DNA of 46,076 bases, taken from contig DASPGW010000043.1 of NCBI GenBank assembly GCA_035620395.1, positions 1 through 46,076 of the forward strand, read 5' to 3'. This stretch comes from Desulfuromonadales bacterium (GTDB taxonomy: Bacteria; Desulfobacterota; Desulfuromonadia; Desulfuromonadales; DASPGW01). A model generated the notes under the pieces. That model did not search any database, was not told the origin of the DNA, and saw nothing but the letters and a program-made list of their open reading frames with translations. A program made the translations under genes and the position numbers. Of the stretch, positions 1,598 to 42,275 are shown piece after piece (position 1 is the first letter of the stretch; each line of letters opens with the position of its first letter).

Positions 1598-2608
1598 GTG
1601 GAGCCGGAACAACGCTTTCGCCTGTTGCAGCGGGCCAGGGTCAAGACGCTGCTGAAGAGGGGGTTCCTCCTGGTGCTGGCCGGAGCCCTGCTCTACAATG
1701 TCGTGGCGCTGGTCTATGCCACCAAGACCATCTACAAGGTCCGCCGCAACTATGCGGTGATCATGGAGGACCTCTCCGGCGACCGGCGGGTGGTGGCGGA
1801 TGTCGGCTGGCATGCCCGGCTGCCGTTCTTCACCCGGATCGAGCTGGAAGTGCCGCTGATGAACCAGGAGCTCTACCTCGGCGGAACGGCCGAGGCTCAG
1901 CGCATCATGACGCAGGGGAACGTCGCCCTCTGGACCAGCGCCATGCTGACCTTCCGCATCCGTGACCTGCAGCGCTGGGGGATCGAGAACAAGGCGCCGC
2001 AGAACCTGCTGCAGAACGACTACGACGGCATCGTCAAGGACATCATGCAGGGGCGCTCGGTCGACGAGCTGGTCTCCGACCGCGAGCGGATCAAGGAAGT
2101 CATCTTCCGGGATCTCAAGGACCGGCCGATCAACGAGGGGGGGCCGACCCTGGAGCAGAAGTACGGCATCGAAGTCGTCTCCTTCGTCCTGCGCGATACC
2201 CGCTTCGGCGAGAAGCTGGCCGAGGCGAGCGAAGAGAAGAAGCGGCGCGAGCTGATCGCCGAGGCGGAGAACTATGCCGCCGACCAGGAGGCGAGCCGCA
2301 CCCGCAAGCTTTACACCGCCTACAGCGAGTCGATCCGCGACTTTCGCAACGCCCTGGGGCTGCAGGCGGACCACGACCGGTTTCTCTTTGAATTTCTCAA
2401 CCAGCAGAAATGGGCCACCGCCTACGAGAAGAACCAGCAGGGGCAGAACACTTTCGTACTCAATAACACTCTCGGTTCGCCCTCCGTCACCCTGCCGGCA
2501 CCGCCGGCGGGGGTGAGAAAGGATGCTGCAGCGGAAAATGGCAAATCCCCGCAAGACCAGAAGCCCAATCTACGTCAGACTCTCGGAAAAGCGGATCAGG
2601 CAGATTGA
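1598..2608 (+). CDS. SPFH/band-7 (stomatin-prohibitin-flotillin-HflK/C) family membrane protein
   Basis: GTG start with AAAGGAGG upstream. An N-terminal TM helix (GFLLVLAGALLYNVVALVYA) is followed by an SPFH-like core (VALWTSAMLTFRIRDL, KYGIEVVSFVLRDTRF). A charged helical tail follows (EKLAEASEEKKRRELIAEAENYAADQEASR), then a low-complexity C-terminus. Confidence 0.8.
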   Translation: MEPEQRFRLLQRARVKTLLKRGFLLVLAGALLYNVVALVYATKTIYKVRRNYAVIMEDLSGDRRVVADVGWHARLPFFTRIELEVPLMNQELYLGGTAEAQRIMTQGNVALWTSAMLTFRIRDLQRWGIENKAPQNLLQNDYDGIVKDIMQGRSVDELVSDRERIKEVIFRDLKDRPINEGGPTLEQKYGIEVVSFVLRDTRFGEKLAEASEEKKRRELIAEAENYAADQEASRTRKLYTAYSESIRDFRNALGLQADHDRFLFEFLNQQKWATAYEKNQQGQNTFVLNNTLGSPSVTLPAPPAGVRKDAAAENGKSPQDQKPNLRQTLGKADQAD

Positions 2609-5600
2609 GTCGCTGGCCGCGGGGTGGAGCTTTGAAACCCGCCTCTTCGTCCTGCGCCGGCTTCGCCAGTACAACCCCTCCCGCTCTCCCTTCGAGCTGC
2701 TGCGCGGCTGGCTGCGCCGATTGCTCAAGCCGGCCGAGCGCAGCTTCCAGATCCTGCGCGACCCGGAACTGCTCAACGACTGGCGGCGGCGCTTCGAGGT
2801 CGCCGGGTCGCCGAGCGCCTCGGCGGCCTGGAACCGGATTCTCGACCGCGAACTCGACTGGCACGACTATCAGTACCTGACCTACCTGCTGGAGCGACAG
2901 ACCGCCGACATCTTCGCCCCGCCGGCCTTCCTTGACATTTTCCGTAGAATCTATCGTGCCCATATCCTCAAGGAGTACACCGAGGACCCGAACGTGCCGC
3001 GGGCGCCGCTGGTGCTGGTCATCGGCAGCAGCGGCAGCGGCAAGAGCGCCACCGTCAAGCAGGCGATCGAGGAGGCGATCTTCGCCTCCGAGGTGCGGCC
3101 GGTGGTCGATCTGCAGGCCAAGCGCGACGAAATGCTCGCCGACCAGCCATTCTGGCGCACCCTCGAAGACGTCGACCCGGAGCTGGCCGTGCGTATCGAA
3201 CGCCGCCGCAAGGTCGAGCGGCTGCGGTTCATCTCGCGCCTGCCGCTGATCAAGTACCTATTCCGCGAGCGGATCAGCCACGCCCTTTCCTCATTGGAGG
3301 AGGAGGGGGTCTGGGTCGATTACGCCATGATCACTCCCAACGACTATCAGACCGCCTGGGCCGGCGAGCCCGGCAACTACCTGCGCAAGGCGATGGGGGA
3401 TCCGCGGCGCACTTCCATCCGTCATCTTGAGGAGGCGCACTCGGCGCTGGGCCGGGCCGATCAGATGAGCACCGTCAAGGGGCAGCAGGCGACGCTCGTC
3501 GATGCAGCCAACATCATTCTTGACGAGATCGCCTACGGGCGCCGCGACTGTCTGCTGATTGCCACGACCGACCAGCCCGAGCAGTTCGATGCCGCCATCT
3601 ACCGGCGCTTCGTCGAACGGGGGCTGGTCATCGACATCGGCGAGATGTGGGATGAGCCGGAAAACCTGCGCGAGGTGGTGCGCATGGAGCTGCAACGCAA
3701 GAACTTCTCCTTCGGTCCAGCCGCCGGGGAAGCCGGCAGCCGGGTGCTGCCCGAAACGGTTCTGGCCGAGACGGTGCAGAAGCTCTACCCCATATTCCGG
3801 GAACGCAGCCTGCGCATCACGCCGGCCTACGTCCGTCGCCTGATCGATTCCATTCTTGCCCTCAGGGAGGAGTTCTCCGCGGCGTGCCTCGACGATCAGT
3901 ACCTGGTCCGGGATGCTCTCAAGGCGGTGGCCCGCAACGTCCACGGTTCCCTCTACAAGAAAGTGGCGGGGCACATGGATCGCTCCATCCATTGGGAGGA
4001 TTACATCGGCGGCATCAAGAACGAGTTCTCCGAAATGGCCAACAACGCCCTCTACTACCATGTCAGCGATGAGAAGGGGGTAGTGCTGACCGGTCCGCCC
4101 GGCTCGGGCAAGACCTACATGGTGCGGGCCTGGCTGGGGGACAACCGGGAAGTCGCCGACCTCGTGGTCAATCTCAATGACCTGACCGACCCGATGCAGC
4201 CGATCGAAGGGATGGTCGCCAATCTGGAGCGGGTCTACGACATCGCCAAAATGATTTCTCCGTCCATGGTTTTCTTCGACGAGGGAGACGCCGTGGCGCC
4301 GCGCCGTTCGCAACAGGGAGGAAGCCCCTACGACAAGGTGACCAACAAGTTTCTCTCGATCATCGACGGCGAGTCTCCGCTCTCCCGCGTCTTTACCGTG
4401 CTGACCACCAACCGTCTCGATATCCTCGATCCGGCCCTGATTCGTTCCAAACGCCTCAAGGTACTCAACGTCACCGGCCACATGCGGGACGATGACGCCC
4501 TGCGCATCATGCGCAAGGAGCTGCACGACATCCCTCTGGATGAGGGGTTGAGCTTCGAGGAGATGGTGCGGGTCGCCCGGGTGCTTTGCGAAACCCCCGC
4601 CGATTTCACCGCCTTCGCCGAAAAGGTGCGCAGCCTGCGCACCACCGAAATGGAGGTGCTGGCCAAGCTGATGGAGGCGGTGCAGCAGTCGGCGGAGGAG
4701 CGGGCCCGCTTCGTCCGCTTCAATTACAAAACCCTGGTGGGGCTGCTCGAAGGGGGCGGTGGTGAACCGAGCCTGGCGCTCAAGGCGCGGCACGGCGAGG
4801 AAGGGCTCTTGAGCTGCCTCGATGAGGCCGCTGCCCGCCTCGCCCGGGTGCGCGACCTCGGCCTCTACCCGGTAACCCGCTGGCATCTGCACAGCGCCCG
4901 CCAGCAGATGGCCGGCAGTCCGATGCGCAAGGGGAAACAGCAGCTCGACGAGTTTCTCGAGACCGAGCTCTCCCGCGAGCCGCAGGTCGGCTTCGTCGTG
5001 GGGGTGGGCGCCAACGACACCAGCGGGGTGCTGCTGCCGATCGCCTCCTCCCTGGTCTACCGGATGTTTCCCGAGAAGATCGTGGTGACCGGCGCCGTCT
5101 CCTCCGCCGCCCCCGGCGCGGCGGAGCTCGACCTGGCCGTGCAGATGACCCACCAGAGCGCCCGCGAAGCGCTGACCCTGGTGGAGAACTACCTGCAGTC
5201 CCTCTGCCCCTCGCGCAACGTGCCGCGTATCCTCGGCGAGTTCCTCGAGGGCTACTCGCTGCACCATCAGCTGCTTTCCGCCTCCTACAGCGTCGGTGGA
5301 CCATCGGCCGGATTTGCCCTGGCCATCAACACCCTGTCGGTGCTGCTCTGTCTGCCGGTCCTCAACGATTTCGGCATTACCGGGGCGCCCTGGATCAAGG
5401 GGGCGCAGCGCGGCGAGGTCGGCGCCTCGGTGATCATCGGCGGCCATCGCAAGAAGGCGGAAAAGGTCCTGCAGTATCTGCCCCGCATGTACATGCCGAT
5501 GCAGAACTATCAGGACCTCGAGCCCGAGCTGCTGGAAGCCTACAGGCTGGAGGGGCGGGATATCCGGGGCGTTCGCAGCTTTTCGGCGCTGGTCCCCGAG

Positions 5601-5888
5601 GTCTTTTTCTTCGACGACCTGCAGCAGCGGCGGCTGGGCGAATATCTGCGGCTCCGTCTGGATCTCGACCGCAAGGCGGATCTGCCTGAAGGGCTGTCGG
5701 CTTCGGCGAAGAAGGGGGAGCTCGAACGGCGGGAGGCGGAGCTGCGCAGCCAGGCGGAGGAGGAAATCCGCCGCCGGATCGAAGCGATCTGTCTGTGCGT
5801 GGAAAACGGTGGGGCGGTCTACGGAAGCATGGAAGACCTTTTCCGGCTGTCGCCGAAAGCCGTCCAGCGGCAGGAGGACGTGCGCTGA
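2523..5888 (+). CDS. tandem AAA+ ATPase fused to a Lon-type (S16) Ser-Lys protease domain, 1121 aa
   Basis: AAA module 1 has Walker A GSSGSGKS (3024-3047) and LLIATTDQPEQFDAAIYRRF. AAA module 2 is of the classical clade: GPPGSGKT (4092-4115), Walker B MVFFDEGD and SRH-like TTNRLDILDPALIRSKRL. The C-terminal Lon proteolytic domain has GGPSAGFALAINTL (Ser codon 5304-5306) and IIGGHRKKAEK (Lys). The protein ends in a Glu/Arg-rich tail. The start could be ATG 2523 or ATG 2538; both overlap the SPFH gene. Confidence 0.8.
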   Translation: MLQRKMANPRKTRSPIYVRLSEKRIRQIESLAAGWSFETRLFVLRRLRQYNPSRSPFELLRGWLRRLLKPAERSFQILRDPELLNDWRRRFEVAGSPSASAAWNRILDRELDWHDYQYLTYLLERQTADIFAPPAFLDIFRRIYRAHILKEYTEDPNVPRAPLVLVIGSSGSGKSATVKQAIEEAIFASEVRPVVDLQAKRDEMLADQPFWRTLEDVDPELAVRIERRRKVERLRFISRLPLIKYLFRERISHALSSLEEEGVWVDYAMITPNDYQTAWAGEPGNYLRKAMGDPRRTSIRHLEEAHSALGRADQMSTVKGQQATLVDAANIILDEIAYGRRDCLLIATTDQPEQFDAAIYRRFVERGLVIDIGEMWDEPENLREVVRMELQRKNFSFGPAAGEAGSRVLPETVLAETVQKLYPIFRERSLRITPAYVRRLIDSILALREEFSAACLDDQYLVRDALKAVARNVHGSLYKKVAGHMDRSIHWEDYIGGIKNEFSEMANNALYYHVSDEKGVVLTGPPGSGKTYMVRAWLGDNREVADLVVNLNDLTDPMQPIEGMVANLERVYDIAKMISPSMVFFDEGDAVAPRRSQQGGSPYDKVTNKFLSIIDGESPLSRVFTVLTTNRLDILDPALIRSKRLKVLNVTGHMRDDDALRIMRKELHDIPLDEGLSFEEMVRVARVLCETPADFTAFAEKVRSLRTTEMEVLAKLMEAVQQSAEERARFVRFNYKTLVGLLEGGGGEPSLALKARHGEEGLLSCLDEAAARLARVRDLGLYPVTRWHLHSARQQMAGSPMRKGKQQLDEFLETELSREPQVGFVVGVGANDTSGVLLPIASSLVYRMFPEKIVVTGAVSSAAPGAAELDLAVQMTHQSAREALTLVENYLQSLCPSRNVPRILGEFLEGYSLHHQLLSASYSVGGPSAGFALAINTLSVLLCLPVLNDFGITGAPWIKGAQRGEVGASVIIGGHRKKAEKVLQYLPRMYMPMQNYQDLEPELLEAYRLEGRDIRGVRSFSALVPEVFFFDDLQQRRLGEYLRLRLDLDRKADLPEGLSASAKKGELERREAELRSQAEEEIRRRIEAICLCVENGGAVYGSMEDLFRLSPKAVQRQEDVR

Positions 5889-8627: not shown

Positions 8628-11030
8628 ATGGCGCGCAAAGATCTCATCCTGTGGTTCGACCAGATCGGCATGAAGGATGTCCTCCGGGTGGGCGGCAAGA
8701 ACGCCTCGCTGGGGGAGATGGTCCGCAGCCTCTCGCCCGCGGGGGTGAGAATCCCCGATGGCTTCGCGGTGACTGCCGATGCCTACCGTTTCTTCATCGC
8801 AGCGGCCGGGCTTGAGCCGAAGTTGCGGGAGCTGCTCGGCAAGCTCGACACGGAGACGATGGACAATCTATCCGCCATCGGCCGCCGGGCGCGCCGATTG
8901 CTGCGCTCCGCCCCGCTTCCCGACGCTCTGGAGGAGGCGATCCGCCAGGCCTATCGACAGCTTGAGGCAAAGTACGGGGAGGAGTGTGACGTGGCGGTGC
9001 GCTCCAGCGCCACCGCCGAAGATCTGCCGGAGGCCTCCTTTGCCGGCCAGCAGGAGAGCTACCTGAATATCCGCGGCGAGGAGGAGCTGCTCGAGGCAGT
9101 TCGGCGCTGCTTCGCTTCGCTCTTCACCAACCGGGCCATCTCCTACCGTCACGATCAGGGGTTCGGCCATTTCGAGGTGGCCCTTTCGGTCGGTGTGCAG
9201 AAGATGGTGCGCGCCGACAAGGGATGTGCCGGGGTGCTGTTCACCATCGACACCGAATCGGGTTTTCCCGACGTGGTGCTGATCAACGCCGCCTGGGGGC
9301 TCGGCGAAAACGTGGTGCGCGGGGCGGTCAATCCCGACGAATACTACGTCTTCAAACCGACCCTCAAGAAAGGGTGCCGGCCGATTATCGGCAAGAACCT
9401 GGGGAGCAAGGAGAAGAAGATCGTCTACACCGAGGAGGGGGGCAAAGGAACCACCCGGGAGGTGGAGGTTGCCGCCGAGGACCGGCGGCGCTTCTGTCTG
9501 GCGGATGCAGAGGTTCTCGAACTGGCGCGCCTCGCCTGCACCATCGAGGACCACTACGGCCGGCCGATGGACATCGAGTGGGGGCGCGACGGCGAGACCG
9601 GCGAGCTCTACATTCTCCAGGCGCGGCCGGAGACCGTCCAGTCGCTGCGGCAAAAGAGCACGCTGGAGAGCTACCGGCTGCAAGGGGAGGGGGAGGTTCT
9701 GGCCCGCGGCAAGAGCGTCGGCAGCAAGATCGGCGCCGGACGCGCCATGGTGATCAGGGACGCGCACCAGATCGAACGCTTCGAGAAGGGGTGCGTCCTG
9801 GTCACCGGCATGACCGACCCGGACTGGGAGCCGGTGATGAAGAAGGCGGCCGCCATCGTCACCAACCGCGGCGGCCGCACCTGCCATGCCGCCATCGTCA
9901 GCCGCGAGTTGGGGATCCCCTGCGTCATCGGCACCGGCGACGGGACGGAGAAAATTCCGGACGGCGGCGAAGTGACCGTCTCCTGCGCGCAGGGAGAGTC
10001 GGGTCTCGTCTACCGCGGGCGTCTCGAGTACGCGGTGGAGAGAACCGATCTCGCCGAACTGGCGCGGCCCCGCACCGCCATCATGATGAACCTCGGCGAC
10101 CCGGGGCAGGCCTTTGCCCTCTCCCGCATCCCCAACGACGGGGTCGGTCTCGCCCGTCTCGAGTTCATCATCAACACCGCCATCCAGGCGCATCCGCTCG
10201 CCCTGCTGCATCCGGAGCGGGTCGAGGAGAACACGGTGCGGCGGCGTCTGGCCGAGCTGACCGCCGGTTATGCGGACGGCGGCGCGTTCTTCGTCGACCG
10301 GCTGGCCCGGGGGGTGGCGACCATCGCCGCCGCCTTCTTTCCCCGCGACGTGATCGTGCGGATGAGTGACTTCAAGACCAACGAGTACGCAGGCCTGCTC
10401 GGCGGGTCGGCCTTCGAACCGGCCGAGGCCAACCCGATGATCGGTTTCCGCGGCGCCTCCCGCTACTACGACGAGCGCTACCGGGAGGGGTTCCTGCTCG
10501 AATGCGCCGCGATGCGCCAGGTGCGTGAGGAGATGGGGCTGACCAACGTCAAGCTGATGATCCCCTTCTGCCGCACGGTGGAGGAGGGAAAGAAGGTGCT
10601 GGCGGTGATGGCGGAGGCAGGGCTCAAGCGGGGCAGGGACGGCCTCGAGGTCTACGTCATGTGCGAGATCCCGTCCAACGTCATCCTTGCCGAGGAGTTC
10701 GCGGAAATTTTCGACGGCTTCTCCATCGGCTCCAACGACCTCACCCAGCTCATTCTCGGCCTCGACCGGGATTCGGAGATCGTCGCCCATCTCTACGACG
10801 AGCGCAACACCGCGGTGAAGCGCATGGTCGCCGATGGCATCGCCCGGGTGAAGCAGGCCGGGCGCAAGATCGGCATCTGCGGCCAGGCGCCCAGCGATTA
10901 TCCCGAGTTCGCCGAATTTCTCGTCGAGTGCGGCATCGACAGCATCTCCCTCAATCCCGACACGGTCCTGCCGACCACCCTGCGGATCCTGGAGGTAGAG
11001 AAGAAGCTGGCGGCAAAGACCGGTCTCTGA
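8628..11030 (+). CDS. ppsA: phosphoenolpyruvate synthase (pyruvate, water dikinase)
   Basis: ORF track 8526..11030. I moved the start to ATG 8628 (MARKDLILWF) after GGAGG. The N-terminal ATP-grasp has VGGKNASLGEM. The swivel His motif is GGRTCHAAIVSRELGIPCV. The C-terminal PEP/pyruvate domain has GICGQAPSD. Confidence 0.93.
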   Translation: MARKDLILWFDQIGMKDVLRVGGKNASLGEMVRSLSPAGVRIPDGFAVTADAYRFFIAAAGLEPKLRELLGKLDTETMDNLSAIGRRARRLLRSAPLPDALEEAIRQAYRQLEAKYGEECDVAVRSSATAEDLPEASFAGQQESYLNIRGEEELLEAVRRCFASLFTNRAISYRHDQGFGHFEVALSVGVQKMVRADKGCAGVLFTIDTESGFPDVVLINAAWGLGENVVRGAVNPDEYYVFKPTLKKGCRPIIGKNLGSKEKKIVYTEEGGKGTTREVEVAAEDRRRFCLADAEVLELARLACTIEDHYGRPMDIEWGRDGETGELYILQARPETVQSLRQKSTLESYRLQGEGEVLARGKSVGSKIGAGRAMVIRDAHQIERFEKGCVLVTGMTDPDWEPVMKKAAAIVTNRGGRTCHAAIVSRELGIPCVIGTGDGTEKIPDGGEVTVSCAQGESGLVYRGRLEYAVERTDLAELARPRTAIMMNLGDPGQAFALSRIPNDGVGLARLEFIINTAIQAHPLALLHPERVEENTVRRRLAELTAGYADGGAFFVDRLARGVATIAAAFFPRDVIVRMSDFKTNEYAGLLGGSAFEPAEANPMIGFRGASRYYDERYREGFLLECAAMRQVREEMGLTNVKLMIPFCRTVEEGKKVLAVMAEAGLKRGRDGLEVYVMCEIPSNVILAEEFAEIFDGFSIGSNDLTQLILGLDRDSEIVAHLYDERNTAVKRMVADGIARVKQAGRKIGICGQAPSDYPEFAEFLVECGIDSISLNPDTVLPTTLRILEVEKKLAAKTGL

Positions 11031-11092: not shown

Positions 11093-14077
11093 ATGACCCG
11101 GATTCTGCTTTCAGCTTTCATGGCGTTTCTGCTCTGCCTCGGGTGTACGGCAAGGGTTTTCGGGAAAAGCCTGCCGACCCTGAGTCACGCCTCGGCCGCT
11201 CCGGCCGGGACGCCCTCCGCCCATCCCGAATCCCTGCCCCCTCCCGAGATTCTGCGTCAGTGGATCGCCCAGATGAAAGAGGCCCCACGGGGCCCTTTCC
11301 AGCGCCTCCGCTGGTTCTGTAAGGATGGCACCATTTTCCCCCCCCAACCCTACGCCTGCCAGGATCACGGCGGGGGGGTACAGCACGGCGAATGGAGCGA
11401 TCGGGTCAAGCTGCTGCGCTCCCACGGGTACCGGATCGCCAATGTGCTTGCCGCTGTCGATCCGGCCTCTTTCAGGAAAGACTCCGATTGGCTGCCGACC
11501 CTCAAGCAGATGCTTCTCGAGCAGTTTCTCATCGAAGCCGACGACGGCTGGATCTATCGTCAGGCCCGTTATTACCCGGGGGCTCTCCAGACCGAAAATG
11601 AAAATGCTTACGGGCGGGCGCTGCTTCTGGATCTGTTGACCGACCGCCGCATGCACAACGAAAATTTCCTGGTGATGCGGGAGGCTGTGCGCCTGCTTCC
11701 GCACGGTCGTCGGGGAGTCCCCCTCATAGAGATGCGTCAATTGGCCCGGACCATCGAGGACAAGGATCCGAATTTCACCCCATTGCGGGTCAAACTCCAT
11801 GTCCGTCCCGATTCGGGGGACGCCGGCCGCGTCCGGACTTATGCCGCCGGCAAGGGGAAGCCCGCTCTGGCCGGGGAGTACTATAATCTGGCCGCGGTCA
11901 TCGACGAGGTCTACACCTCCCGGAATATCGTGGAGGGGTTGCACCAGGCGGCTTCCCGGAGTAGAGACGCCGGTCTGGCCCGGTCGCTCAAACAGGCTGC
12001 GGCTTTGCTGGCGGTGGAGCTGGACCCGGTCCGCCGTTTTGCCACGGTCGCCGCGGCAATGTTCGAAATTCGCCAGACCTTTTCCCGGCCCGGCAGCGCC
12101 ACGCGGATGCTGGAGCTGCTGGATCTCAGCCTCGATCTCGAGCAGGAAGCCTTCCAGCTCGGCAACCAGTGGCTCGACCGCCTGGCCGAGACCGACCGCC
12201 GGGGGCGCCTGGACTGGCTGCAGGGCAGTTCCCGGGTCATTTACGGGATGGGCCTGATTTCCCGGCGGGAGCTCGACGCGCTGGGGGAGAGTTTCCGCCA
12301 GCTTGAAGCCGCCCCGCTGGCGGCCGGCACCTATAAGGCCGAACTCGATTATCTGGCACGAATCTCCGAATGGGCAGAGAATACCCTGCATTTTCACTTC
12401 CAGCAGTCGATCGACCATCTGGCCACCCTCGATCCGCTGTTCGAGCGGTATATCCCCGACCGGCTCCGGGGCAGCCCTCTGGTCTGCCTGATCAGCGTGC
12501 TCGACAGCCTGAGGCTGGATGCCGGCAGGCTGGTCGGCATCCGTCACCAGGTGTTCGGTTCCCCGGTGAGCAGCGGGCTGCGCGCCCTCAACCCCGGGCT
12601 GGCCCGCGGCACACTGCGCTTCTATCGCCCGGAGGCCGGGTGGGAGCGGGAGGCGATCTACCTGCTGCCGGAAACCCTGGCCGAGCTTCCCCCGCTGGCG
12701 GGCATGCTGACCGAGGGGAGAGGCAATGCCCTCTCCCACGTGCAACTGCTGGCCCGCAACCTGGGGATTCCCAATGTCGCCGTCGAGCACCAGCTGGCGG
12801 CGAAGCTGAGGTCCCGGGAGGGGCAGCCGGTGGTCCTGGCGGCCAGCCCCGCCGGGGTGGTCGAACTGGCCGAAGACGGCCGCCGCTGGGATCAAATCTT
12901 TCAGGGTGAACAAGCCTCCGCCGATCTGCTCATCCATCCCGACCTGGCAAAGCTCGATCTGGCCACCCGCGATTTTCTCCCGCTGCGGGACCTCCGGGCG
13001 GCCGCTTCGGGGCGGATCGTCGGGCCCAAGGCGGCCAATCTCGGCGAGCTGAAAAGCCTCTACCCCGACCTGGTGACCGAGGGCCTGGCCATCCCCTTCG
13101 GGCTTTTCCGCCAGCATCTGGAGCAGCCCATCGAGCCCGGCGGCCCGACAGCGTTCCAGTGGATGCAGGAGCAATACGCGGCGCTCCGGCGGATCGAGGA
13201 CCCCCGGGCTCGAGCCTTGGGGGAGACGGGTTTTCTCCATAGTCTGCGGGAGTGGATCATCACCAGCGATCCGGGCCGGAAATTCACCGGCAACCTGCGG
13301 GCGGCCATGGCCCGAACCTTCGGGCCGGAGGGGAGCTACGGCGTTTTCGTCCGCAGCGACACCAACGTGGAAGACCTGCCGGGGTTCTCCGGAGCCGGCC
13401 TGAATCTGACCGTGCCGCACGTGGTCGGCTTCGAAAACGTCCTGCGGGCCATCCTCCAGGTGTGGGCCTCCCCCTTCACCGAGCGGGCCTACGCCTGGCG
13501 TCAGGGACATATGGAGCAGCCCGAGCAGGTCTACGTATCGGTTCTGCTGATGCGAAGCGTTCCGGCGGAAAAGTCGGGGGTCATGGTCACTGCCGACATC
13601 GAGACGGGGAATCGGGACTGGGTGACCGTGGCGGTGAACGAGGGGGTGGGCGGCGCCGTAGAGGGGCAGCGGGCCGAGGAACTCCTGATCGACCGGCGCA
13701 GCGGCCGGGTCCGTCTGCTGGCCCAGGCTGCCGAACCGCTCAAACGGGTTCTGCGTCCCGGGGGCGGCGTCGGCAAGGTCCCCGCCAGCGGGGTGGAGAG
13801 CATTTTATCCAGCGAGGAAATCCGGACCCTGGTACAGATGGCCGACAGTCTCCCCGGGCGTTTCCCGAGCCAGGTCGATGCCGGCGGAAAATCGGCGCCG
13901 GCGGACATCGAATTCGGTTTTGTCGACAACCGCTTCGTCCTGTTCCAGATCCGCCCCTTCCTGGAAAGTTCCCGGGCCCGCCGCAGCCTTTATCTGCAGC
14001 GGCTCGACGCGCAGATGGAAGGAGCCGGCGCCCGCACCGTCGATCTGGAAGAAATTCCCCGGGAGGGCGGGTCATGA
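11093..14077 (+). CDS. secreted PEP-utilising-family dikinase-like protein with permuted (GWD-like) domain order
   Basis: The ORF-track frame opens at 10661, inside ppsA. The first plausible start is ATG 11093 (MTRILLSAFMAFLLCLGCTARVFG, a signal peptide). About 500 aa of the N-terminal region carry no motif I recognise. The phospho-His swivel domain has GRGNALSHVQLLARNLGIPNV (His codon 12737-12739). The C-terminal PPDK_N/ATP-grasp domain has GPKAANLGEL, VFVRSDTNVEDLPGFSGAGL, EKSGVMVTAD and DIEFGFVDNRFVLFQIRP. No PEP/pyruvate TIM-barrel domain is present. Confidence 0.8.
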   Translation: MTRILLSAFMAFLLCLGCTARVFGKSLPTLSHASAAPAGTPSAHPESLPPPEILRQWIAQMKEAPRGPFQRLRWFCKDGTIFPPQPYACQDHGGGVQHGEWSDRVKLLRSHGYRIANVLAAVDPASFRKDSDWLPTLKQMLLEQFLIEADDGWIYRQARYYPGALQTENENAYGRALLLDLLTDRRMHNENFLVMREAVRLLPHGRRGVPLIEMRQLARTIEDKDPNFTPLRVKLHVRPDSGDAGRVRTYAAGKGKPALAGEYYNLAAVIDEVYTSRNIVEGLHQAASRSRDAGLARSLKQAAALLAVELDPVRRFATVAAAMFEIRQTFSRPGSATRMLELLDLSLDLEQEAFQLGNQWLDRLAETDRRGRLDWLQGSSRVIYGMGLISRRELDALGESFRQLEAAPLAAGTYKAELDYLARISEWAENTLHFHFQQSIDHLATLDPLFERYIPDRLRGSPLVCLISVLDSLRLDAGRLVGIRHQVFGSPVSSGLRALNPGLARGTLRFYRPEAGWEREAIYLLPETLAELPPLAGMLTEGRGNALSHVQLLARNLGIPNVAVEHQLAAKLRSREGQPVVLAASPAGVVELAEDGRRWDQIFQGEQASADLLIHPDLAKLDLATRDFLPLRDLRAAASGRIVGPKAANLGELKSLYPDLVTEGLAIPFGLFRQHLEQPIEPGGPTAFQWMQEQYAALRRIEDPRARALGETGFLHSLREWIITSDPGRKFTGNLRAAMARTFGPEGSYGVFVRSDTNVEDLPGFSGAGLNLTVPHVVGFENVLRAILQVWASPFTERAYAWRQGHMEQPEQVYVSVLLMRSVPAEKSGVMVTADIETGNRDWVTVAVNEGVGGAVEGQRAEELLIDRRSGRVRLLAQAAEPLKRVLRPGGGVGKVPASGVESILSSEEIRTLVQMADSLPGRFPSQVDAGGKSAPADIEFGFVDNRFVLFQIRPFLESSRARRSLYLQRLDAQMEGAGARTVDLEEIPREGGS

Positions 14078-15327
14078 AACGGCGGCTGGCGTTCCTGGGA
14101 ATTCTGGTGTTTTTGCTCGCCGCCTGGCCAGCATGGTCCTACCCGGTCGACGGGGAAGATTACACCGGCATTTCCCGTCTGGAAGGATACCGCCGCGCGC
14201 AGCAGCGGCTCCTGCCCAAGGGGGCGCGGCTCCCCCTGAAGGAAGTCGACCTGCGCCTGACGGACCGGCGGGATTTGGCGCTCCCCCCCAGCGACCCGGA
14301 ATTCAGCCGCCAGATCCTCCGCCTGCTGGGGGAGGAGGCCGACCGCTACGCCATTGCCGTGCTCGACCTTTCCGACCCGGACCAGCCCCGCTATGCCGAG
14401 CATCGGGGGGAAGTCAACCACAATCCCGGCAGCGTCGGCAAGCTGGTCATTGCCCTGGGGGTTTTCCAGGCACTGGCCGACCTTTACCCGGATGACATCG
14501 CCGCCCGGGAACGGGTGCTCCGGCAGACGATGGTGACCGCCGACGCTTTTATCCTCTCCGATCATCACAAGGTCCCCTTCTGGAACCCTGCCGAGCAGCG
14601 CATCAACTCCCGGCCCCTGCAGGTCGGCGATCGGGCCAGCCTCTGGGCCTGTCTCGACTGGATGCTCTCGGCCAGTTCCAACGCGGCGGCGAGCATGGTG
14701 TTGAAGGAGCTGCTGCTGCTGAACCACTTTGGCCGGGACTATCCGGTCGGCAAGACCAGGGAAGAAAAGTTCTGGCGGGAAACGGGCAAGCGGGAGCTTT
14801 CCGCGCTCCTCACCCGCAGCCTGCAGGATCCCGTTTCCCACAACGGCCTGGACCTCGACCAACTGCGGCAGGGAGGCTTCTTTACCTGGAAGGGGAAACA
14901 ACTGGTCCCCGGAACCAGCAGCCGCGCCTCGCCGAGGATGCTGATGGAGTATCTGGTGCGGCTGGAGCAGGGGAGGCTGGTGGACGAGTTCTCCAGCCGC
15001 GAAATCAAGCGGCTGCTCTACATGACCCAGCGCCGGATCCGTTATGCCTCAAGTCCGGCGCTGGCCGAGGCGGCAGTCTACTTCAAGTCGGGATCGTTGT
15101 ACCGGTGCAAGCCGGAGCCGGGCTTCGTCTGCCGAAAATACCAGGGCAACGTCGAGAACCTGTTGAATTCGGTGGCGATCGTCGAACACCCCGCGGGCGA
15201 GCGGCGGCTGCATTATCTGGTGGTGGTGATGTCGAACGTGTTGAGGAAGAATTCGGCGGTGGAGCACCAGAGCCTGGCGACCCGGGTGCACCGCCTCATC
15301 GAGGTCAGCCGCGGGGACGGCAGATGA
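14074..15327 (+). CDS. secreted class-A beta-lactamase-fold serine hydrolase
   Basis: ATG 14074 overlaps the upstream TGA (ATGA). The signal peptide is MKRRLAFLGILVFLLAAWPAWS. Motifs present are SxxK (SVGK), SxN (MLSASSNAAA) and KSG (YFKSGSL). Confidence 0.75.
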   Translation: MKRRLAFLGILVFLLAAWPAWSYPVDGEDYTGISRLEGYRRAQQRLLPKGARLPLKEVDLRLTDRRDLALPPSDPEFSRQILRLLGEEADRYAIAVLDLSDPDQPRYAEHRGEVNHNPGSVGKLVIALGVFQALADLYPDDIAARERVLRQTMVTADAFILSDHHKVPFWNPAEQRINSRPLQVGDRASLWACLDWMLSASSNAAASMVLKELLLLNHFGRDYPVGKTREEKFWRETGKRELSALLTRSLQDPVSHNGLDLDQLRQGGFFTWKGKQLVPGTSSRASPRMLMEYLVRLEQGRLVDEFSSREIKRLLYMTQRRIRYASSPALAEAAVYFKSGSLYRCKPEPGFVCRKYQGNVENLLNSVAIVEHPAGERRLHYLVVVMSNVLRKNSAVEHQSLATRVHRLIEVSRGDGR

Positions 15328-16183
15328 GATTGTCGAGGGAGACGATGAGCTTGCTGAGCCATTGCCCGCCGTCCGGGTCTTTGGCCAGGGCGACGGCGAT
15401 GTAGCGGTGCCCGTCGTGTTCGATGATGCCGCTGTCGGCGTGAAAATTTTGCCAGGTCCCGGATTTGCGGTAGATCTTCGCAGCACGCCCGGCCTGCTCG
15501 AGCCCCTTGACGAACTTGTGGTGAATGGCCGGCTGGCCGAGAATTTCCTTCATTTCCCGGCTCATTTCGGGGGAAACCAGGCGACCGGTTTCGAGCAGGT
15601 AGTAAAACCGGGCGACCTGGAAGGCGGTGGCGCCATGGGAGAGGTTGTGCAGCGGGTCGCGTTTCCAGGCGGAGGCCTTGCCGTAGTCCTTGCCGACCCA
15701 GAGCCCGCCGTTCATTTCGGGGTCGTAGAGGCGGTAGCGGGGCGATTCCAGGAGGCGGGCCAGGTAGTCCTTGCCGACCAGGTTCAGCATTTCGGTGGCG
15801 GCCTGGTTGGAGGAGTTGCGGATCATCCGGGTCAGCTTCTCCCGGAGGGCGCCGGTCAGGGTCAGCTCCCCCTTCTCGATCCGGTCGAAAGCTCCGAACA
15901 GGATGGCGATTTTCGGCAGGCTGGCGGCATACATCATCCTGTCGCCGTTGACCGACGCCAGGCGCGGCGACTCGGGATCGGTGATGTCGACCAGCGCTAC
16001 GCAGAGGGATTTGTTGCGGACGGCCTGGTCCAGCTTGAGGGCTGCCAGAGAATCTTCCAGCCCCTGCTGCAGAACCTGGTCGGCACAGGCCTCCAGAGGC
16101 GGCAGCGGGGCCTGGGCCCGAGCCGGCAGGATCGAGAAAACGAGCAGAATCACCAGCAGGATACGCAGCATCGGAAAAATCAT
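15305..16183 (-). CDS. secreted class-A beta-lactamase-fold serine hydrolase (paralogue, convergent)
   Basis: ORF track 15305..16225. The start is ambiguous: ATG 16183 (MIFPMLRILL) or ATG 16171 (MLRILL). A signal peptide is present. Motifs are SLPK, IRNSSNQAAT (SxN) and IYRKSGTW (KSG). The 3' end overlaps the convergent gene by 23 nt. Confidence 0.75.
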   Translation of the reverse strand: MIFPMLRILLVILLVFSILPARAQAPLPPLEACADQVLQQGLEDSLAALKLDQAVRNKSLCVALVDITDPESPRLASVNGDRMMYAASLPKIAILFGAFDRIEKGELTLTGALREKLTRMIRNSSNQAATEMLNLVGKDYLARLLESPRYRLYDPEMNGGLWVGKDYGKASAWKRDPLHNLSHGATAFQVARFYYLLETGRLVSPEMSREMKEILGQPAIHHKFVKGLEQAGRAAKIYRKSGTWQNFHADSGIIEHDGHRYIAVALAKDPDGGQWLSKLIVSLDNLICRPRG

Positions 16184-16215
16184 AGGGGCGGATTGTACCG
16201 AATTCTCGAGGGAAA

Positions 16216-17490
16216 ATGCAACCAATTGATTTGAAAAAAGAGCCGGAGAAGGGTGCCGCCCGGGAGTCTAATCTCCGCACCTTGCAGGTAAGGGCCTGTT
16301 TTCTTTTCCTGAATTTCCTGCTGATCATCATGGCCCTTTATCAGCTGAAGCCGGCCAGTCGCTCGCTGTTCATCCAGTTTCTGGGCGCGGACCAGCTTCC
16401 CTACGTCTGGATCGGGACGGCTGTGGTCATGGGGGCACTGATTACCTGGTACCATCGGCTGGTCGAGCGGCATGCGCGGGTGCGGGTGGTCTTCGGCAGC
16501 TGTCTTCTGTTCGGCGCGCTGCTGGTTCTTTTCCGGCTGCTCTTCAACCGCCCGCATCCGGCGACGGCCATCGCCTTTTACATTTTTGTCGACATCCTCA
16601 GCGTGGTCCTGGTAGAGCAGTTCTGGAGCCTGACCAACTCCATCTACAGCACGCGGGAAGGCAAGGCCTGGTACGGTTTCATCGGCACCGGTGGCCTTTT
16701 GGGAGGCGTGCTCGGTGGCGGCGCCGGGGTCCTGCTTCTCAAATATACCCCGTTGCAGACGCCGGATCTGCTCCTCGTGGCTGCCGGCAGTATCCTGCTC
16801 ATTATGGCGCTAACCTGGGTAATGGGACGGCTCGGGATCTATCGCGAAGTGGCTAAGCGGGGGCGCCCCACCCGCTTCGAAGGAGGCTGGCGGGCGTTGC
16901 AGCAGAACCGTTACCTGCTGCTGATCGCCGGCATCCTGCTGCTCGCCCAGCTGGTCGACCCCATCGTGGAATACCAGTTCCTGAAAACGGTCGAAGTCCA
17001 TTATGCCGAACTGGAGGCGCGCACCACCTTTCTCTCGGGTTTTTTCGGTGTCCTCGGCATGGTTGCCATCGCCGTCAACCTTGGCCTTACCCCCCTGGTG
17101 CATCGCTATCTTGGCGTGATTGCCGGTCTGTTGATCCAGCCGCTGGCGTTGGGCGCCTGCTCTTTGGGTTTCTTCGCCAACCCCACCCTGCTTTTCGGGG
17201 CGGCAGCCAAGATCAGCGACCGGGGGCTCTCCTATTCCATCAATCGGGCCTCCAAGGAACTGCTCTACGTCCCTACCGACTCGGTGCTGATCTACCAGGC
17301 CAAAGCCTGGATCGATATGTTCGGTTACCGCCTGTTCAAGATCTTCGGGTCCTTTGTCATTCTCATCTTCACCCGGTGGCTTCCCTTTTCCGTCGAGGTT
17401 CCCCAGCTCAGCTGGTTCACCGTCGGCATCTGCGTTCTCTGGGTCGTGCTCATCGTGGCCCTTCGCCGGGACTACGTGAAGTTCGCCTGA
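16216..17490 (+). CDS. polytopic membrane carrier, TLC/Npt-like (ADP/ATP-translocase family) MFS-type
   Basis: About 11-12 hydrophobic segments are visible. The N-terminal LFLNFLLIIMALYQLKPASRSLFIQFLGADQLPYVW resembles the conserved start of COG3202/TLC carriers. Being a membrane transporter is near certain; the family assignment is tentative. Confidence 0.6.
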   Translation: MQPIDLKKEPEKGAARESNLRTLQVRACFLFLNFLLIIMALYQLKPASRSLFIQFLGADQLPYVWIGTAVVMGALITWYHRLVERHARVRVVFGSCLLFGALLVLFRLLFNRPHPATAIAFYIFVDILSVVLVEQFWSLTNSIYSTREGKAWYGFIGTGGLLGGVLGGGAGVLLLKYTPLQTPDLLLVAAGSILLIMALTWVMGRLGIYREVAKRGRPTRFEGGWRALQQNRYLLLIAGILLLAQLVDPIVEYQFLKTVEVHYAELEARTTFLSGFFGVLGMVAIAVNLGLTPLVHRYLGVIAGLLIQPLALGACSLGFFANPTLLFGAAAKISDRGLSYSINRASKELLYVPTDSVLIYQAKAWIDMFGYRLFKIFGSFVILIFTRWLPFSVEVPQLSWFTVGICVLWVVLIVALRRDYVKFA

Positions 17491-17531: not shown

Positions 17532-17559
17532 TTGACAGCCGGAGCTGGATGATTATCCT
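17532..17559 (+). promoter_or_regulatory. candidate promoter of hsp20
   Basis: TTGACA (17532-17537), 16-nt spacer, TATCCT (17554-17559). The -35 sits in the context CTTGACA, which also resembles the sigma-32 -35 element (CTTGAAA), but no CCCCAT-type -10 is present. Confidence 0.35.
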
Positions 17560-17583
17560 TGGAAAATCGTGCCCTTCACCTTG

Positions 17584-17601
17584 TCCGGCAAACGTTTGCC
17601 G
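17584..17601 (+). promoter_or_regulatory. 18-nt perfect palindrome in the hsp20 leader
   Basis: CCGGCAAACGTTTGCCGG lies about 30 nt upstream of the hsp20 start codon, between the candidate promoter and the SD. Confidence 0.4.
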
Positions 17602-17632
17602 GAAGCGGCGAAGGAATCCCCGGGAGGAGTCT

Positions 17633-18076
17633 ATGGCGATCGTGAAATGGGACCCGCTGCGCGAGCTGCGGGCGATGCAGGAGCAGATGAACCGGTTGTT
17701 CGAGATGAGCCGCGACCGCACTTTTGGCGAACCCTTCGAACAGGGGCTCTGGCAGCCGCCGGTCGACATCTACGAGGACGACCGGGAGGTGGTGGTGAAG
17801 ATGGAGGTGCCCGAGGTCGAACAGAAAGACATCGACGTGCACATCGAGGAGGGAACCCTGATCATCCAGGGGGAGCGCAAGCTCGAGCGGGAGGAGAAAA
17901 AGCAAAATTACCACCGCATCGAACGCAGCTACGGCACCTTCCGCCGCAGCTTTTCCCTGCCGGGCACCGTGGATCAGGGGGAGGTCAGCGCCACCTGCGA
18001 AAAAGGGGTGCTCAAGGTCGTGCTGCCGAAAAAGGGGGCCGGCCAGTCGCGGCACATCGAGGTGGAAATTAAATAA
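17633..18076 (+). CDS. Hsp20/alpha-crystallin small heat-shock protein
   Basis: ORF track 17549..18076. I moved the start to ATG 17633 (MAIVKWDPLREL) after GGGAGGAG. The alpha-crystallin core includes PPVDIYEDDREVVVKMEVPEV, YGTFRRSFSLPG and GVLKVVLPK. Confidence 0.93.
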   Translation: MAIVKWDPLRELRAMQEQMNRLFEMSRDRTFGEPFEQGLWQPPVDIYEDDREVVVKMEVPEVEQKDIDVHIEEGTLIIQGERKLEREEKKQNYHRIERSYGTFRRSFSLPGTVDQGEVSATCEKGVLKVVLPKKGAGQSRHIEVEIK

Positions 18077-18085
18077 GACCTTGGA

Positions 18086-19204
18086 CTAGATATTCTCCCC
18101 CGCCGGGGCCGGCAGCCTGTCGGTTTCTTTCCCCTGCAGGTAAACCGTGCGGCTGGGAAAGGCGATCTCCAGCCCCATGCCTTCCAGAATCTCCATGATC
18201 TTCAGACAGACATCCTCGCGTATTTCCAGGTGCTCGGGGAGTGCCGCGGTGAAGGTGAAGCACTGGACAAGAATGTCCAGCGAGGAAGCCCCGAACTCGG
18301 TGAAGCGAACGAGGATGTTCTCCTTGTCGATGGCGGGGTGCGCCGCGAGCATGGCGCGGATGAGTTCCACCGCCTGGCGCATCTGGGTCGGCGTGGTGTC
18401 GTAGGTGACGCCGACGGTGAAGCGGATGCGGCGCTGGGTCATGCGGCTGAGGTTGTTGATCGCCATGTTGGTGATGACGCTGTTGGGGACGCTGATCAGG
18501 CTCTTGTCGAAGGTGCGGATCTTGGTCGAGCGGAAGCCGACCTCCTCCACCGTTCCCTCGATATCTCCGGTCCTGATGTTCTCGCCGATGTGGAAGGGGC
18601 GGTCGACGATGATCATGATCGAGCCGAAGACGTTGGCCAGGGTATCCTTGGCCGCCAGGGCCACCGCCAGGCCGCCGATGCCGAGGGAGGCGAGCAGGCC
18701 GGAAATGGAGTAGCCGAGGTTCTGGATGGCCATCAGCACGGCCAGGAAGATGACGAAGATCCGCAGGCTCTTGCGGACGAAGGGCAGCAGGTGATCGTCG
18801 AGGGTCGACTCGGTACGGCTGACCCACTGGCCGAGGTAGGCCTCGAGCAGCGAGACCATGTTGAAGACGAACCAGGCGACGTCGAAGGTGACCAGTATCT
18901 TGAGCAGGGCGTGGGCGAAGCGCCGGACATTGACCGGTTCGGCCGGCAACTGCAGGACCTGCACGGCGACGAAAAGGCCGCCGATGACGATCAGCAATTC
19001 GGCCGGTTTCTTGAGGCCCTGAAGAAAGAGGTCGTCGTAGCGGCTGTCGGTCTTTTCGGCCAGGGGGAAGATGATGTGGGTGAAGACATGCGCCAGGACC
19101 TTTTTCAGGATCAGGGCCAGAAGCAGGATGCCGCAGGCGATGGCGTAACGCCCGAGGCCAATGCCGAGAAAGGTGCCGCTGAATATCTGTTCGATCGCTT
19201 CCAT
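18086..19204 (-). CDS. mechanosensitive ion channel, MscS family
   Basis: N-terminal TM helices are followed by the MscS pore/beta-domain signature LGIGGLAVALAAKDTLANVFGSIMIIVDRPFHIGENIRTGDIEGTVEEVGFRSTKIRT. Confidence 0.9.
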   Translation of the reverse strand: MEAIEQIFSGTFLGIGLGRYAIACGILLLALILKKVLAHVFTHIIFPLAEKTDSRYDDLFLQGLKKPAELLIVIGGLFVAVQVLQLPAEPVNVRRFAHALLKILVTFDVAWFVFNMVSLLEAYLGQWVSRTESTLDDHLLPFVRKSLRIFVIFLAVLMAIQNLGYSISGLLASLGIGGLAVALAAKDTLANVFGSIMIIVDRPFHIGENIRTGDIEGTVEEVGFRSTKIRTFDKSLISVPNSVITNMAINNLSRMTQRRIRFTVGVTYDTTPTQMRQAVELIRAMLAAHPAIDKENILVRFTEFGASSLDILVQCFTFTAALPEHLEIREDVCLKIMEILEGMGLEIAFPSRTVYLQGKETDRLPAPAGENI

Positions 19205-41047: not shown

Positions 41048-41148
41048 GTCTCTTCGGCAACCCGGCTATCCGTGCCATCTGTTCGATGACCGAGGACCCG
41101 TGGCTTTGCGTCACCGGATTACTCCGGTTTTGCCAGTGTCGGAGACTT
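41048..41148 (-). promoter_or_regulatory. GEMM-I (c-di-GMP-I class) riboswitch aptamer, copy 1
   Basis: The minus-strand RNA is GUCUCCGACACUGGCAAAACCGGAGUAAUCCGGUGACGCAAAGCCACGGGUCCUCGGUCAUCGAACAGAUGGCACGGAUAGCCGGGUUGCCGAAGAGAC. It carries the GEMM-I hallmarks: GGCAAA(A)CC, a GNRA-capped hairpin, GACGCAAAGCC and ACGGAUAGCCGGGUU.CCGAA. Confidence 0.85.
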
Positions 41149-41891: not shown

Positions 41892-41997
41892 CTCCCTTCG
41901 GGAACCCGGCTATCCGTCCCACCTTCGCTGAGGCTTCGGTGGGCGAGGACCCGTGGCTTTGCGTCGCCGGATTTCTCCGGGTTTGCCGTTATCGGTG
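41892..41997 (-). promoter_or_regulatory. GEMM-I riboswitch aptamer, copy 2 (abuts the SD and start codon)
   Basis: The minus-strand RNA is CACUUCACCGAUAACGGCAAACCCGGAGAAAUCCGGCGACGCAAAGCCACGGGUCCUCGCCCACCGAAGCCUCAGCGAAGGUGGGACGGAUAGCCGGGUUCCCGAAGGGAGUGAACGCCAUG. The GGGAG SD lies inside the 3' closing region of the aptamer. Confidence 0.85.
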
Positions 41998-42166: not shown

Positions 42167-42275
42167 TTCTCTTCGGAGACCCGGCTATCCGTCCCGCCTT
42201 AGCTGTTGCTTCGGTGGGCGAGGACCCGTGGTTTTGCGTCGCCGGATTTCTCCGGGTTTGCCGTTTCGGAGACTT
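42167..42275 (-). promoter_or_regulatory. GEMM-I riboswitch aptamer, copy 3 (upstream member of the tandem pair)
   Basis: The minus-strand RNA is GUCUCCGAAACGGCAAACCCGGAGAAAUCCGGCGACGCAAAACCACGGGUCCUCGCCCACCGAAGCAACAGCUAAGGCGGGACGGAUAGCCGGGUCUCCGAAGAGAAG. It is near-identical to copy 2 over about 58 nt. It reads GCAAAACC instead of GCAAAGCC. Confidence 0.8.

Follow-up and report, generated by a model that had tools for sequence, protein, structure and literature searches.

Where could a kinase that works outside the cytoplasm obtain its ATP? In the textbook view, the periplasm contains no ATP and is powered through ABC transporters, through the proton-motive force relayed by TonB and Tol, and through energy stored in precursors such as D-Ala-D-Ala. 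The question is raised by a locus on a contig of a Desulfuromonadales bacterium (GenBank assembly GCA_035620395.1, contig DASPGW010000043.1, positions 1 to 46,076; the whole stretch of 46,076 nucleotides is referred to here as the window), in which four genes encode a predicted Sec-exported dikinase (DK), two putative exported SxxK acyl-serine enzymes (BL1 and BL2) and an inner-membrane carrier of the TLC/NTT family. The route by which ATP reaches the periplasm from the cytosol has been stated to be unknown (Spari and Beldi 2020, PMC7432876). Our analysis gives about an even chance to the reading that the region represents one example of a four-gene envelope module, widely conserved and uncharacterised, in which the carrier would feed a periplasmic dikinase.

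A conserved four-gene unit

The four genes lie within positions 11093-17490, with the same coordinates as in an initial annotation of the window. The DK stop codon overlaps the BL1 start in an ATGA (14074-14077), and the two genes are predicted to be translationally coupled. BL1 and BL2 converge and share 23 nt at their 3' ends (15305-15327); the carrier starts on the opposite strand with an ATG at 16216, 32 nt from the BL2 ATG at 16183. The BL2 frame is also open from an upstream TTG at 16225, the ATG being the likelier start. The initial annotation had described an ATGA overlap between a dikinase and a serine hydrolase, a second, paralogous SxxK/SxN/KSG protein that converges on the first with a 23-nt overlap, and a divergent TLC/Npt-like carrier about 30 nt away; all three descriptions held on the sequence. 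The functional linkage of the four genes it had offered as hypothesis only.

How far does this linkage extend beyond the window? When each GTDB species was scanned in one genome, at least 538 stretches were found to encode a relative of DK, and the 80 best loci were taken with 10-kb flanks; the neighbours of DK were sought by tBLASTn with the window proteins and by clustering of open reading frames (ORFs). Among the 49 loci with at least 6 kb of DNA downstream of DK, 45 have BL1, 42 have BL2, 35 have a TLC-like carrier of any kind and 34 have all four genes. ORF clustering, applied to DK loci with enough downstream DNA, recovered BL1 in 60/67, BL2 in 52/61, a carrier orthologue in 45/55 and all three in 40/55. 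The commonest order is DK+ BL1+ BL2- TLC+ (29 loci), and several loci have a shuffled order with all four genes kept. In the complete genome of Desulfuromonas versatilis, the called genes read PPDK_N / Beta-lactamase2 / Beta-lactamase2(-) / TLC, with unrelated genes on either side. No further gene family is conserved around DK: the other recurrent 'families' are shadow ORFs on the antisense strand of these genes, and they cluster across loci only because the genes they overlap are conserved. The window itself has many such long antisense or overlapping ORFs on both strands between 8868 and 16331 (examples in Table 1), which we rejected as genes and regard as shadow ORFs of DNA of about 65% GC.

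The same picture emerged in a reverse test that started from the carrier in metagenome contigs, counting loci with enough flanking DNA. BL2 adjoins the carrier in 57/58 of these loci and BL1 is found in 46/49; DK is present in 32/32, with the order DK> BL1> <BL2 TLC> in 31 of the 32. Across loci, identities to the window DK, BL1 and carrier co-vary (r 0.7-0.8). The four-gene linkage is therefore real, strongly conserved and far beyond chance, and what had been hypothesis in the initial annotation now stands on counts from both ends of the unit.

By record titles, the module occurs in Desulfobacterota, Gammaproteobacteria, Nitrospirota, Myxococcota, Spirochaetales and Opitutales. Most copies are found in metagenome-assembled genomes (MAGs), and the phylum assignments are MAG labels, a few of which are probably binning errors; sediment is the stated source for a few contigs only. 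Cultured hosts are Desulfuromonas versatilis, Guyparkeria hydrothermalis and Halieaceae GM1-29. In one record, titled Nitrosopumilus sp. (L063), a contig assigned to an ammonia-oxidising archaeon carries the typical bacterial module (DK, BL1, BL2 and a distant carrier), which probably reflects a binning error rather than a real archaeal occurrence; a Hyphomicrobiales record (L011) was noted together with it.

A predicted exported dikinase with a novel N-terminal domain

DK consists of a signal peptide, a helical N-domain, a phosphohistidine domain and a C-terminal ATP-grasp domain. The AlphaFold2 (AF2) model for the whole protein (pLDDT 84.7, pTM 0.82) divides into three domains: the N-domain, which is helical (aa 50-480), the His domain, which is rich in beta structure (aa 485-600), and the ATP-grasp domain (aa 640-994). 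PF01326 (PPDK_N) matches aa 642-963 with 105 bits against 27, and the ATP-site residues K646 (GPK646), R754, E760 and D761 (VRSDTNVEDLPGF), E940 (ADIEFGF), and Q952 and R954 (FQIRP) are invariant in 75 homologues and align to equivalent stretches of PEP (phosphoenolpyruvate) synthase and rifampin phosphotransferase (RPH) among the PDB sequences. The mobile His domain PF00391 matches aa 524-569 with 21.9 bits, just under its gathering score of 23.1, and several homologues carry it in precomputed Pfam; within this match, His549 is invariant in 75 aligned homologues, with the consensus GNxLSHVQLLARNLGIPN. By its ATP-grasp and His domains, DK can be assigned to the His-swivel (PEP-utilising) dikinase superfamily, and dikinase chemistry is predicted for it.

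With RPH, PEP synthase and PPDK, DK shares the ATP-grasp fold, the ATP-site residues and a swivelling phosphohistidine domain, but its architecture is its own. RPH is ordered as ATP-grasp, substrate (rifampin-binding) domain and His domain, an order that is permuted in DK; the PEP/pyruvate TIM barrel of PEP synthase and PPDK is missing from DK, in which Pfam finds no PEP/pyruvate-binding domain PF02896, and here too the domain order differs. RPH, phenolic phosphate synthetase, PEP synthase and PPDK are all cytoplasmic, whereas DK is predicted to be exported. Foldseek with the full-length model found matches through the ATP-grasp domain only (RPH 5hv2, E 7e-14; PpsA 2ols; HpeI; PPDK), and the NCBIfam models for PEP synthase, RPH and PigC likewise match DK only through this domain, with 50-100 bits against cut-offs of 600-1700. 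None of the PEP synthase cut-offs (NF005057, 88.9 vs 598; TIGR01418, 78 vs 740) or RPH cut-offs (NF041857, 82.5 vs 999; NF000283, 67.5 vs 1700) is reached. More than 609 full-length homologues belong to the family; they measure about 976 aa and are named in the sources only 'PEP/pyruvate-binding domain-containing protein' or 'hypothetical'.

A PEP synthase gene proper, ppsA, lies directly upstream in the window: a bona fide family member (1201 bits) that ends 62 nt before the DK start and whose distant relationship to DK is confined to the ATP-grasp domain (37% over 121 aa). It was considered as a fifth member of the module and rejected. Among the 80 genome loci only one (L062) has ppsA, about 8 kb off, so the adjacency is not conserved and the gene is not part of the module.

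The N-domain modelled alone gave a pLDDT of 89.4 and a pTM of 0.88; it is presumed to be the acceptor-binding domain. A phmmer search with it against 1.84 billion representative proteins returned 567 clusters; in the best 150 of these, all full-length hits (about 920-1050 aa) share the DK architecture, with the domain at about aa 30-470.

Is DK really outside the cytoplasm, as the initial annotation had predicted? In nearly all of the 67 displayed orthologue N-termini, a positive n-region is followed by a hydrophobic core and a cleavage motif of the AxA type. The Cys76/Cys89 pair is invariant in DK homologues, and together with an invariant pair in BL1 (Cys345/Cys353) it fits an oxidising compartment. 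The prediction of export thus held. The opposite case would be that DK is cytoplasmic, held by an N-terminal membrane anchor, or that the four genes are functionally unrelated neighbours. The window DK taken by itself leaves some room for this, with ambiguous charges around its hydrophobic segment (MTR before, RVFGK after), but its orthologues have classical AxA cleavage motifs, DK and BL1 appear translationally coupled, and the complete carrier-side linkage survives rearrangement across phyla. Of the readings weighed here, we hold this one to be the least probable.

Two serine enzymes of the class-A beta-lactamase fold

BL1 and BL2 both match PF13354 (E 2.5e-10 and 9e-21) and have the active-site motifs of this family: S120-V-G-K, S-S-N and K-S-G in BL1, and S88-L-P-K, S-S-N and K-S-G in BL2. 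Invariant in their orthologues are S120, K123, S201-S-N203, K338-S-G and the Cys345/Cys353 pair of BL1, and S88, K91, S124-x-N126 and K240-S-G of BL2. The two are distant paralogues (23% identical, E 4e-8), and BL1 is extended at its N-terminus by a conserved segment of about 90 aa. The consensus N-termini of both, assessed by hydropathy and by eye, are signal peptides. Gene content, conserved synteny, export signals and intact ATP, His and Ser-Lys catalytic motifs are what the sequences show of the module.

By motifs and PF13354, BL1 and BL2 class as serine enzymes like class-A beta-lactamases or PBP-A. With PBP-A (Tll2115) and other class-A beta-lactamase-like penicillin-binding proteins (PBPs) they share SxxK, SxN, KxG and PF13354, but the resemblance is distant: in profile searches against PDB sequences, Tll2115 is the nearest solved protein for BL2 at a marginal E of 1e-3, and no solved relative was detected for BL1, which differs further in its N-terminal segment and Cys pair.

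Beta-lactamase relatives beside a relative of RPH invite another explanation, which the initial annotation had raised as its alternative: an antibiotic or xenobiotic inactivation cluster, in which compounds would be detoxified in the periplasm by a phosphotransferase like RPH or PPS together with two hydrolases that resemble beta-lactamases. The ATP-grasp domain of DK is indeed structurally closest to that of RPH, RPH relatives phosphorylate diverse phenolics, and PF13354 is a beta-lactamase family. However, DK falls far short of the RPH equivalog models (67-82 bits vs 999-1700), its domain order is unlike that of RPH, and its N-domain has no Foldseek match to the rifampin-binding domain. BL1 and BL2 match nothing in NCBIfam, which includes the NCBI beta-lactamase models, at E<0.01. 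The genes form a conserved chromosomal unit, and a search of 72,556 plasmids found no member of the DK family, only ppsA and rph matches through the ATP-grasp domain. A dedicated carrier would also be left unexplained. We found no evidence for a resistance cluster, and this part of the initial interpretation, which we now regard as very unlikely, is not supported. Nor does any of the four module proteins match a defence-system model in PADLOC.

A TLC/NTT-family carrier and its variants

The carrier reaches 60.4 bits with PF03219 (TLC), whose gathering score is 21, and, by hydropathy, has about 12 transmembrane segments (10 strong, 2 weaker) and a basic central loop. Its best PDB match is 9j3n, 'ADP,ATP carrier protein 1' (E 1.8e-6), and its orthologues are auto-named 'Npt1/Npt2 family nucleotide transporter' in the sources. 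Pfam TLC, the number of transmembrane segments and the 9j3n match are shared with known NTT/TLC transporters (Npt1/Tlc1 of Chlamydia and Rickettsia, plastid NTT1); the differences are a length of 424 aa against roughly 500 and an occurrence in free-living bacteria. These matches identify the carrier as a genuine member of the TLC/NTT family, with nucleotide transport as its predicted function. All functionally characterised NTTs transport nucleotides, and NTTs are widespread in free-living bacteria, where their function is unknown (Major et al. 2017, PMC5381601).

What about loci that lack the orthologous carrier? There, a distant homologue often follows BL2 (24-27% identical, 433-460 aa, no Pfam match). 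Two further loci have NTT-HEAT-type TLC proteins with weak TLC matches, so that three different TLC-like subtypes associate with DK, the other two replacing the orthologous carrier or supplementing it. In one of the two (L039), the TLC-type protein also gives a sub-threshold HEAT match; its gene is found on the opposite strand, upstream of DK, and the locus has no BL gene, which ties the carrier to DK and not to the products of the hydrolases. A more divergent arrangement is found in L150, where an orthologue of the carrier (64% identical) comes before a PF13354 protein of 334 aa. Upstream of this carrier, the opposite strand encodes a 544-aa protein that has a signal peptide, a DK paralogue of 1016 aa (31% identical over the full length) and an unknown protein of 566 aa, an arrangement that suggests a second subtype of the system. 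In one gammaproteobacterial lineage (L040, L065, L066), a gene on the opposite strand is inserted between DK and BL1; its product, of about 907 aa, is rich in TPRs and begins like a lipoprotein, and neither BL2 nor a TLC-like gene was found within these three loci.

This variation bears on a further alternative, in which the module is real but the carrier works inwards. It would take up, much as AmpG or UhpT do, what the periplasmic enzymes produce, a fragment that is phosphorylated or hydrolysed, or it would only salvage AMP or adenosine nucleotides, and DK would draw on another donor such as environmental ATP or a different nucleotide. The carrier gives a weak MFS_1 match, and MFS families include organophosphate and muropeptide permeases; it is far from canonical NTTs, and some loci have no carrier nearby. 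On the other hand, no other source of ATP is apparent for an exported ATP-grasp enzyme, the sole conserved membrane partner comes from the one bacterial family known to move ATP/ADP, and the pairing with DK extends over all three TLC-like subtypes and, in L039, dispenses with the BL genes. We judge import of this kind unlikely. Another version of inward transport runs the dikinase in reverse: DK would form ATP out of AMP, inorganic phosphate (Pi) and some extracellular phospho-compound rich in energy, and this ATP would enter through the NTT, as a form of nucleotide or energy scavenging. Characterised NTTs do serve the uptake of nucleotides or ATP, and PPDK-type reactions are reversible, but ordinary phosphoesters cannot drive the synthesis of ATP from AMP and Pi, DK has no PEP-binding domain, and the two SxxK enzymes would have no role. 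This we find highly improbable.

Features of the window and of related loci

Other genes of the window stand apart from the module. Directly downstream of the carrier is an Hsp20 gene, preceded by a 10/12 match to a sigma-70-like promoter at 17532-17559, and convergent with it a gene for an MscS-type mechanosensitive channel; both were rejected as module members, being no conserved neighbours, and a single MscS-like match was seen, in L038. A 1121-aa ORF with two P-loop/AAA regions and weak STAND-NTPase and Lon_C protease matches is unrelated to the module. Further downstream, a stretch of 1.2 kb contains three GEMM-I cyclic-dinucleotide riboswitch aptamers: one of the c-di-GMP-I-GGC variant (65.9 bits) and two of the c-di-GMP-I type (65.7 and 57.4 bits). 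They are in keeping with the Desulfuromonadales/Geobacter-like origin to which the closest homologues point.

Table 1. Coordinates of the module genes, their parts and other features in the window, and of variants in related loci (locus handles are given where positions refer to another locus).
Feature	Position	Strand	Length or extent	Remarks
DK, predicted Sec-exported His-swivel dikinase	11093-14077	+	994 aa	Pfam, NCBIfam, homologues, AF2 model
Predicted Sec signal peptide of DK, MTRILLSAFMAFLLCLGCTARVFG	11093-11164	+		positive n-region, hydrophobic core, small-residue cleavage motif; cleavage site approximate
N-terminal domain of DK	11225-12547	+	aa 45-485	about 22 helices and a small beta unit with invariant Cys76 and Cys89 (AF2)
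Codon of His549, predicted phospho-carrier histidine	12737-12739	+		in motif GNALSHVQLLARNLGIPN, inside PF00391 match
ATP-grasp (PPDK_N) domain of DK	13010-14074	+	aa 640-994	GPK646, VRSDTNVEDLPGF, ADIEFGF, FQIRP
BL1, putative exported SxxK acyl-serine enzyme	14074-15327	+	417 aa	class-A beta-lactamase / PBP-A fold; PF13354
BL2, putative exported SxxK acyl-serine enzyme	15305-16183	-	292 aa	distant BL1 paralogue; PF13354
Carrier, TLC/NTT family, inner membrane	16216-17490	+	424 aa	PF03219
ppsA	8628-11030	+		PEP synthase
Hsp20 gene	17532-18076	+		
MscS-type channel gene	18086-19204	-		
ORF with two P-loop/AAA regions	2523-5888	+	1121 aa	
GEMM-I aptamer	41052-41143	-		
GEMM-I aptamer	41897-41997	-		
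GEMM-I aptamer	42172-42272	-		
Antisense ORF	11111-13510	-	799 aa	shadow ORF
Antisense ORF	15213-16331	-		shadow ORF
Distant carrier	L034 10370-11671	-		
Distant carrier	L053 15265-16647	-		
Distant carrier	L045 15373-16752	-		
Distant carrier	L061			
NTT-HEAT-type TLC protein	L039 7288-9483	-	731-795 aa (both)	weak TLC match
NTT-HEAT-type TLC protein	L023 18621-21008	+		weak TLC match
Variant module	L150 361-9593			
TPR-rich protein	L040 13903-16626	-		
TPR-rich protein	L065 13424-16138	-		
TPR-rich protein	L066 12895-15633	-		

Discussion

Co-conservation of the four genes, export signals and a genuine TLC carrier together make a nucleotide carrier that feeds an exported dikinase the best-supported reading of the locus. 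This was the part of the initial interpretation that stood, and at the level of sequence analysis it came through every in-silico test run. How would such a module work? In the scheme that we propose, the carrier would move ATP out of the cytoplasm in exchange for AMP or ADP (plus Pi) from the periplasm. Exported DK would bind the ATP in its C-terminal ATP-grasp domain and transfer the beta-phosphate to His549, with release of AMP and Pi, and the swivel domain would then deliver this phosphate to an acceptor that the helical N-domain holds. BL1 and BL2 would form acyl-serine intermediates on the same envelope substrate, before or after its phosphorylation. We infer that ATP is the cargo and in which direction it moves, that DK acts as a dikinase in the periplasm, and that the substrate is a polymer or peptide of the envelope, for which the initial annotation had suggested something D-Ala-D-Ala-like or a glycan.

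The layout of DK has its closest parallel in the glucan, water dikinase (GWD) of plants and algae, which works in a compartment that an NTT carrier feeds with ATP. The LSH motif at the catalytic histidine of DK resembles what we take to be a VLSH motif in GWD. In potato GWD1, V989 and L990 precede H992 of the His domain, and a 444-aa central domain of 20 helices is followed by a 4-residue loop, the His domain and a C-terminal ATP-binding domain (PMC13553574). DK is arranged alike: a helical domain of about 440 aa, then the His domain, then a C-terminal ATP-binding domain of the PPDK type. It differs from GWD and PWD in that Pfam finds neither CBM45 nor CBM20 in full-length DK or its N-domain, and it has a Sec signal peptide where GWD has a plastid transit peptide. 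The GWD entries 9HA9 and 9QVI were not among the Foldseek hits of the N-domain or the PDB-profile hits (E up to 10) of full-length DK, possibly because they are missing from the searched sets.

Two variants of the scheme seem plausible, both of them speculative, and we found no ground for preferring either. By analogy with GWD, DK may phosphorylate an envelope polymer and thereby control its processing. Alternatively, the phosphate placed by DK may serve as the leaving group in an SxxK-mediated acyl transfer, in keeping with the fact that acyl phosphates react with beta-lactamases and DD-peptidases. A possibility is that a hydroxyl or carboxyl group is activated for hydrolysis or transpeptidation, independently of the energy store of D-Ala-D-Ala.

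Several points weigh against a carrier that supplies ATP to a periplasmic dikinase. ATP in the periplasm would be expected to leak through porins and to be attacked by periplasmic phosphatases and nucleotidases. The signal peptides of DK, BL1 and BL2 were called from hydropathy and inspection rather than by a trained predictor such as SignalP. No TLC-like gene lies within 10 kb of DK in 14 of the 49 loci with sufficient downstream DNA, for example in the Halieaceae locus L060. Against TIGR00769, the ATP:ADP antiporter group, the carrier reaches 44.9 bits, below the cut-off of 387.2. The N-domain found no meaningful match in the PDB by Foldseek (best E 0.31, TM-score below 0.2) and no match in Pfam; it appears to be a new domain with no known relatives by fold or Pfam, and its substrate cannot be read from its fold. 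Since all full-length hits of the N-domain share one architecture, no alternative domain context serves as a clue either. Lastly, the characterised NTTs all come from reduced-genome parasites or endosymbiotic organelles such as plastids, and serve uptake (PMC5381601).

We would like to place the module in the context of other systems that supply nucleotides to kinases outside the cytosol. In the eukaryotic endoplasmic reticulum and Golgi, AXER/SLC35B1 imports ATP for lumenal kinases such as Fam20C. As in the proposed module, a dedicated nucleotide exchanger feeds a kinase outside the cytosol; the analogy is functional only, the protein families being unrelated and the compartment belonging to the eukaryotic endomembrane system. 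To our knowledge, an NTT that works in the direction ATP out, AMP or ADP in, has not been described before, and in the open-access literature on such a module, periplasmic dikinases, periplasmic ATP or NTT exporters we found no description of the module. Each of its parts comes from a known superfamily, and the system as a whole has no described bacterial counterpart. The wider proposal, that an NTT/TLC clade in free-living diderms exports ATP for an exported dikinase whose envelope product is then processed by two PBP-like enzymes, we put forward more tentatively.

An exported enzyme with an intact ATP site that is encoded beside a carrier of the ATP/ADP-translocase family in many species makes both the role of NTTs and a route for ATP into the periplasm directly testable. 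The module defines a new family of exported dikinases, with a novel fold predicted for the N-domain, and two new PBP-like families. If our reading is true, the module would give the bacterial periplasm its first system of ATP-dependent phosphorylation with an ATP supply of its own, and it would be the bacterial counterpart of a pair known from plastids, NTT and glucan, water dikinase.

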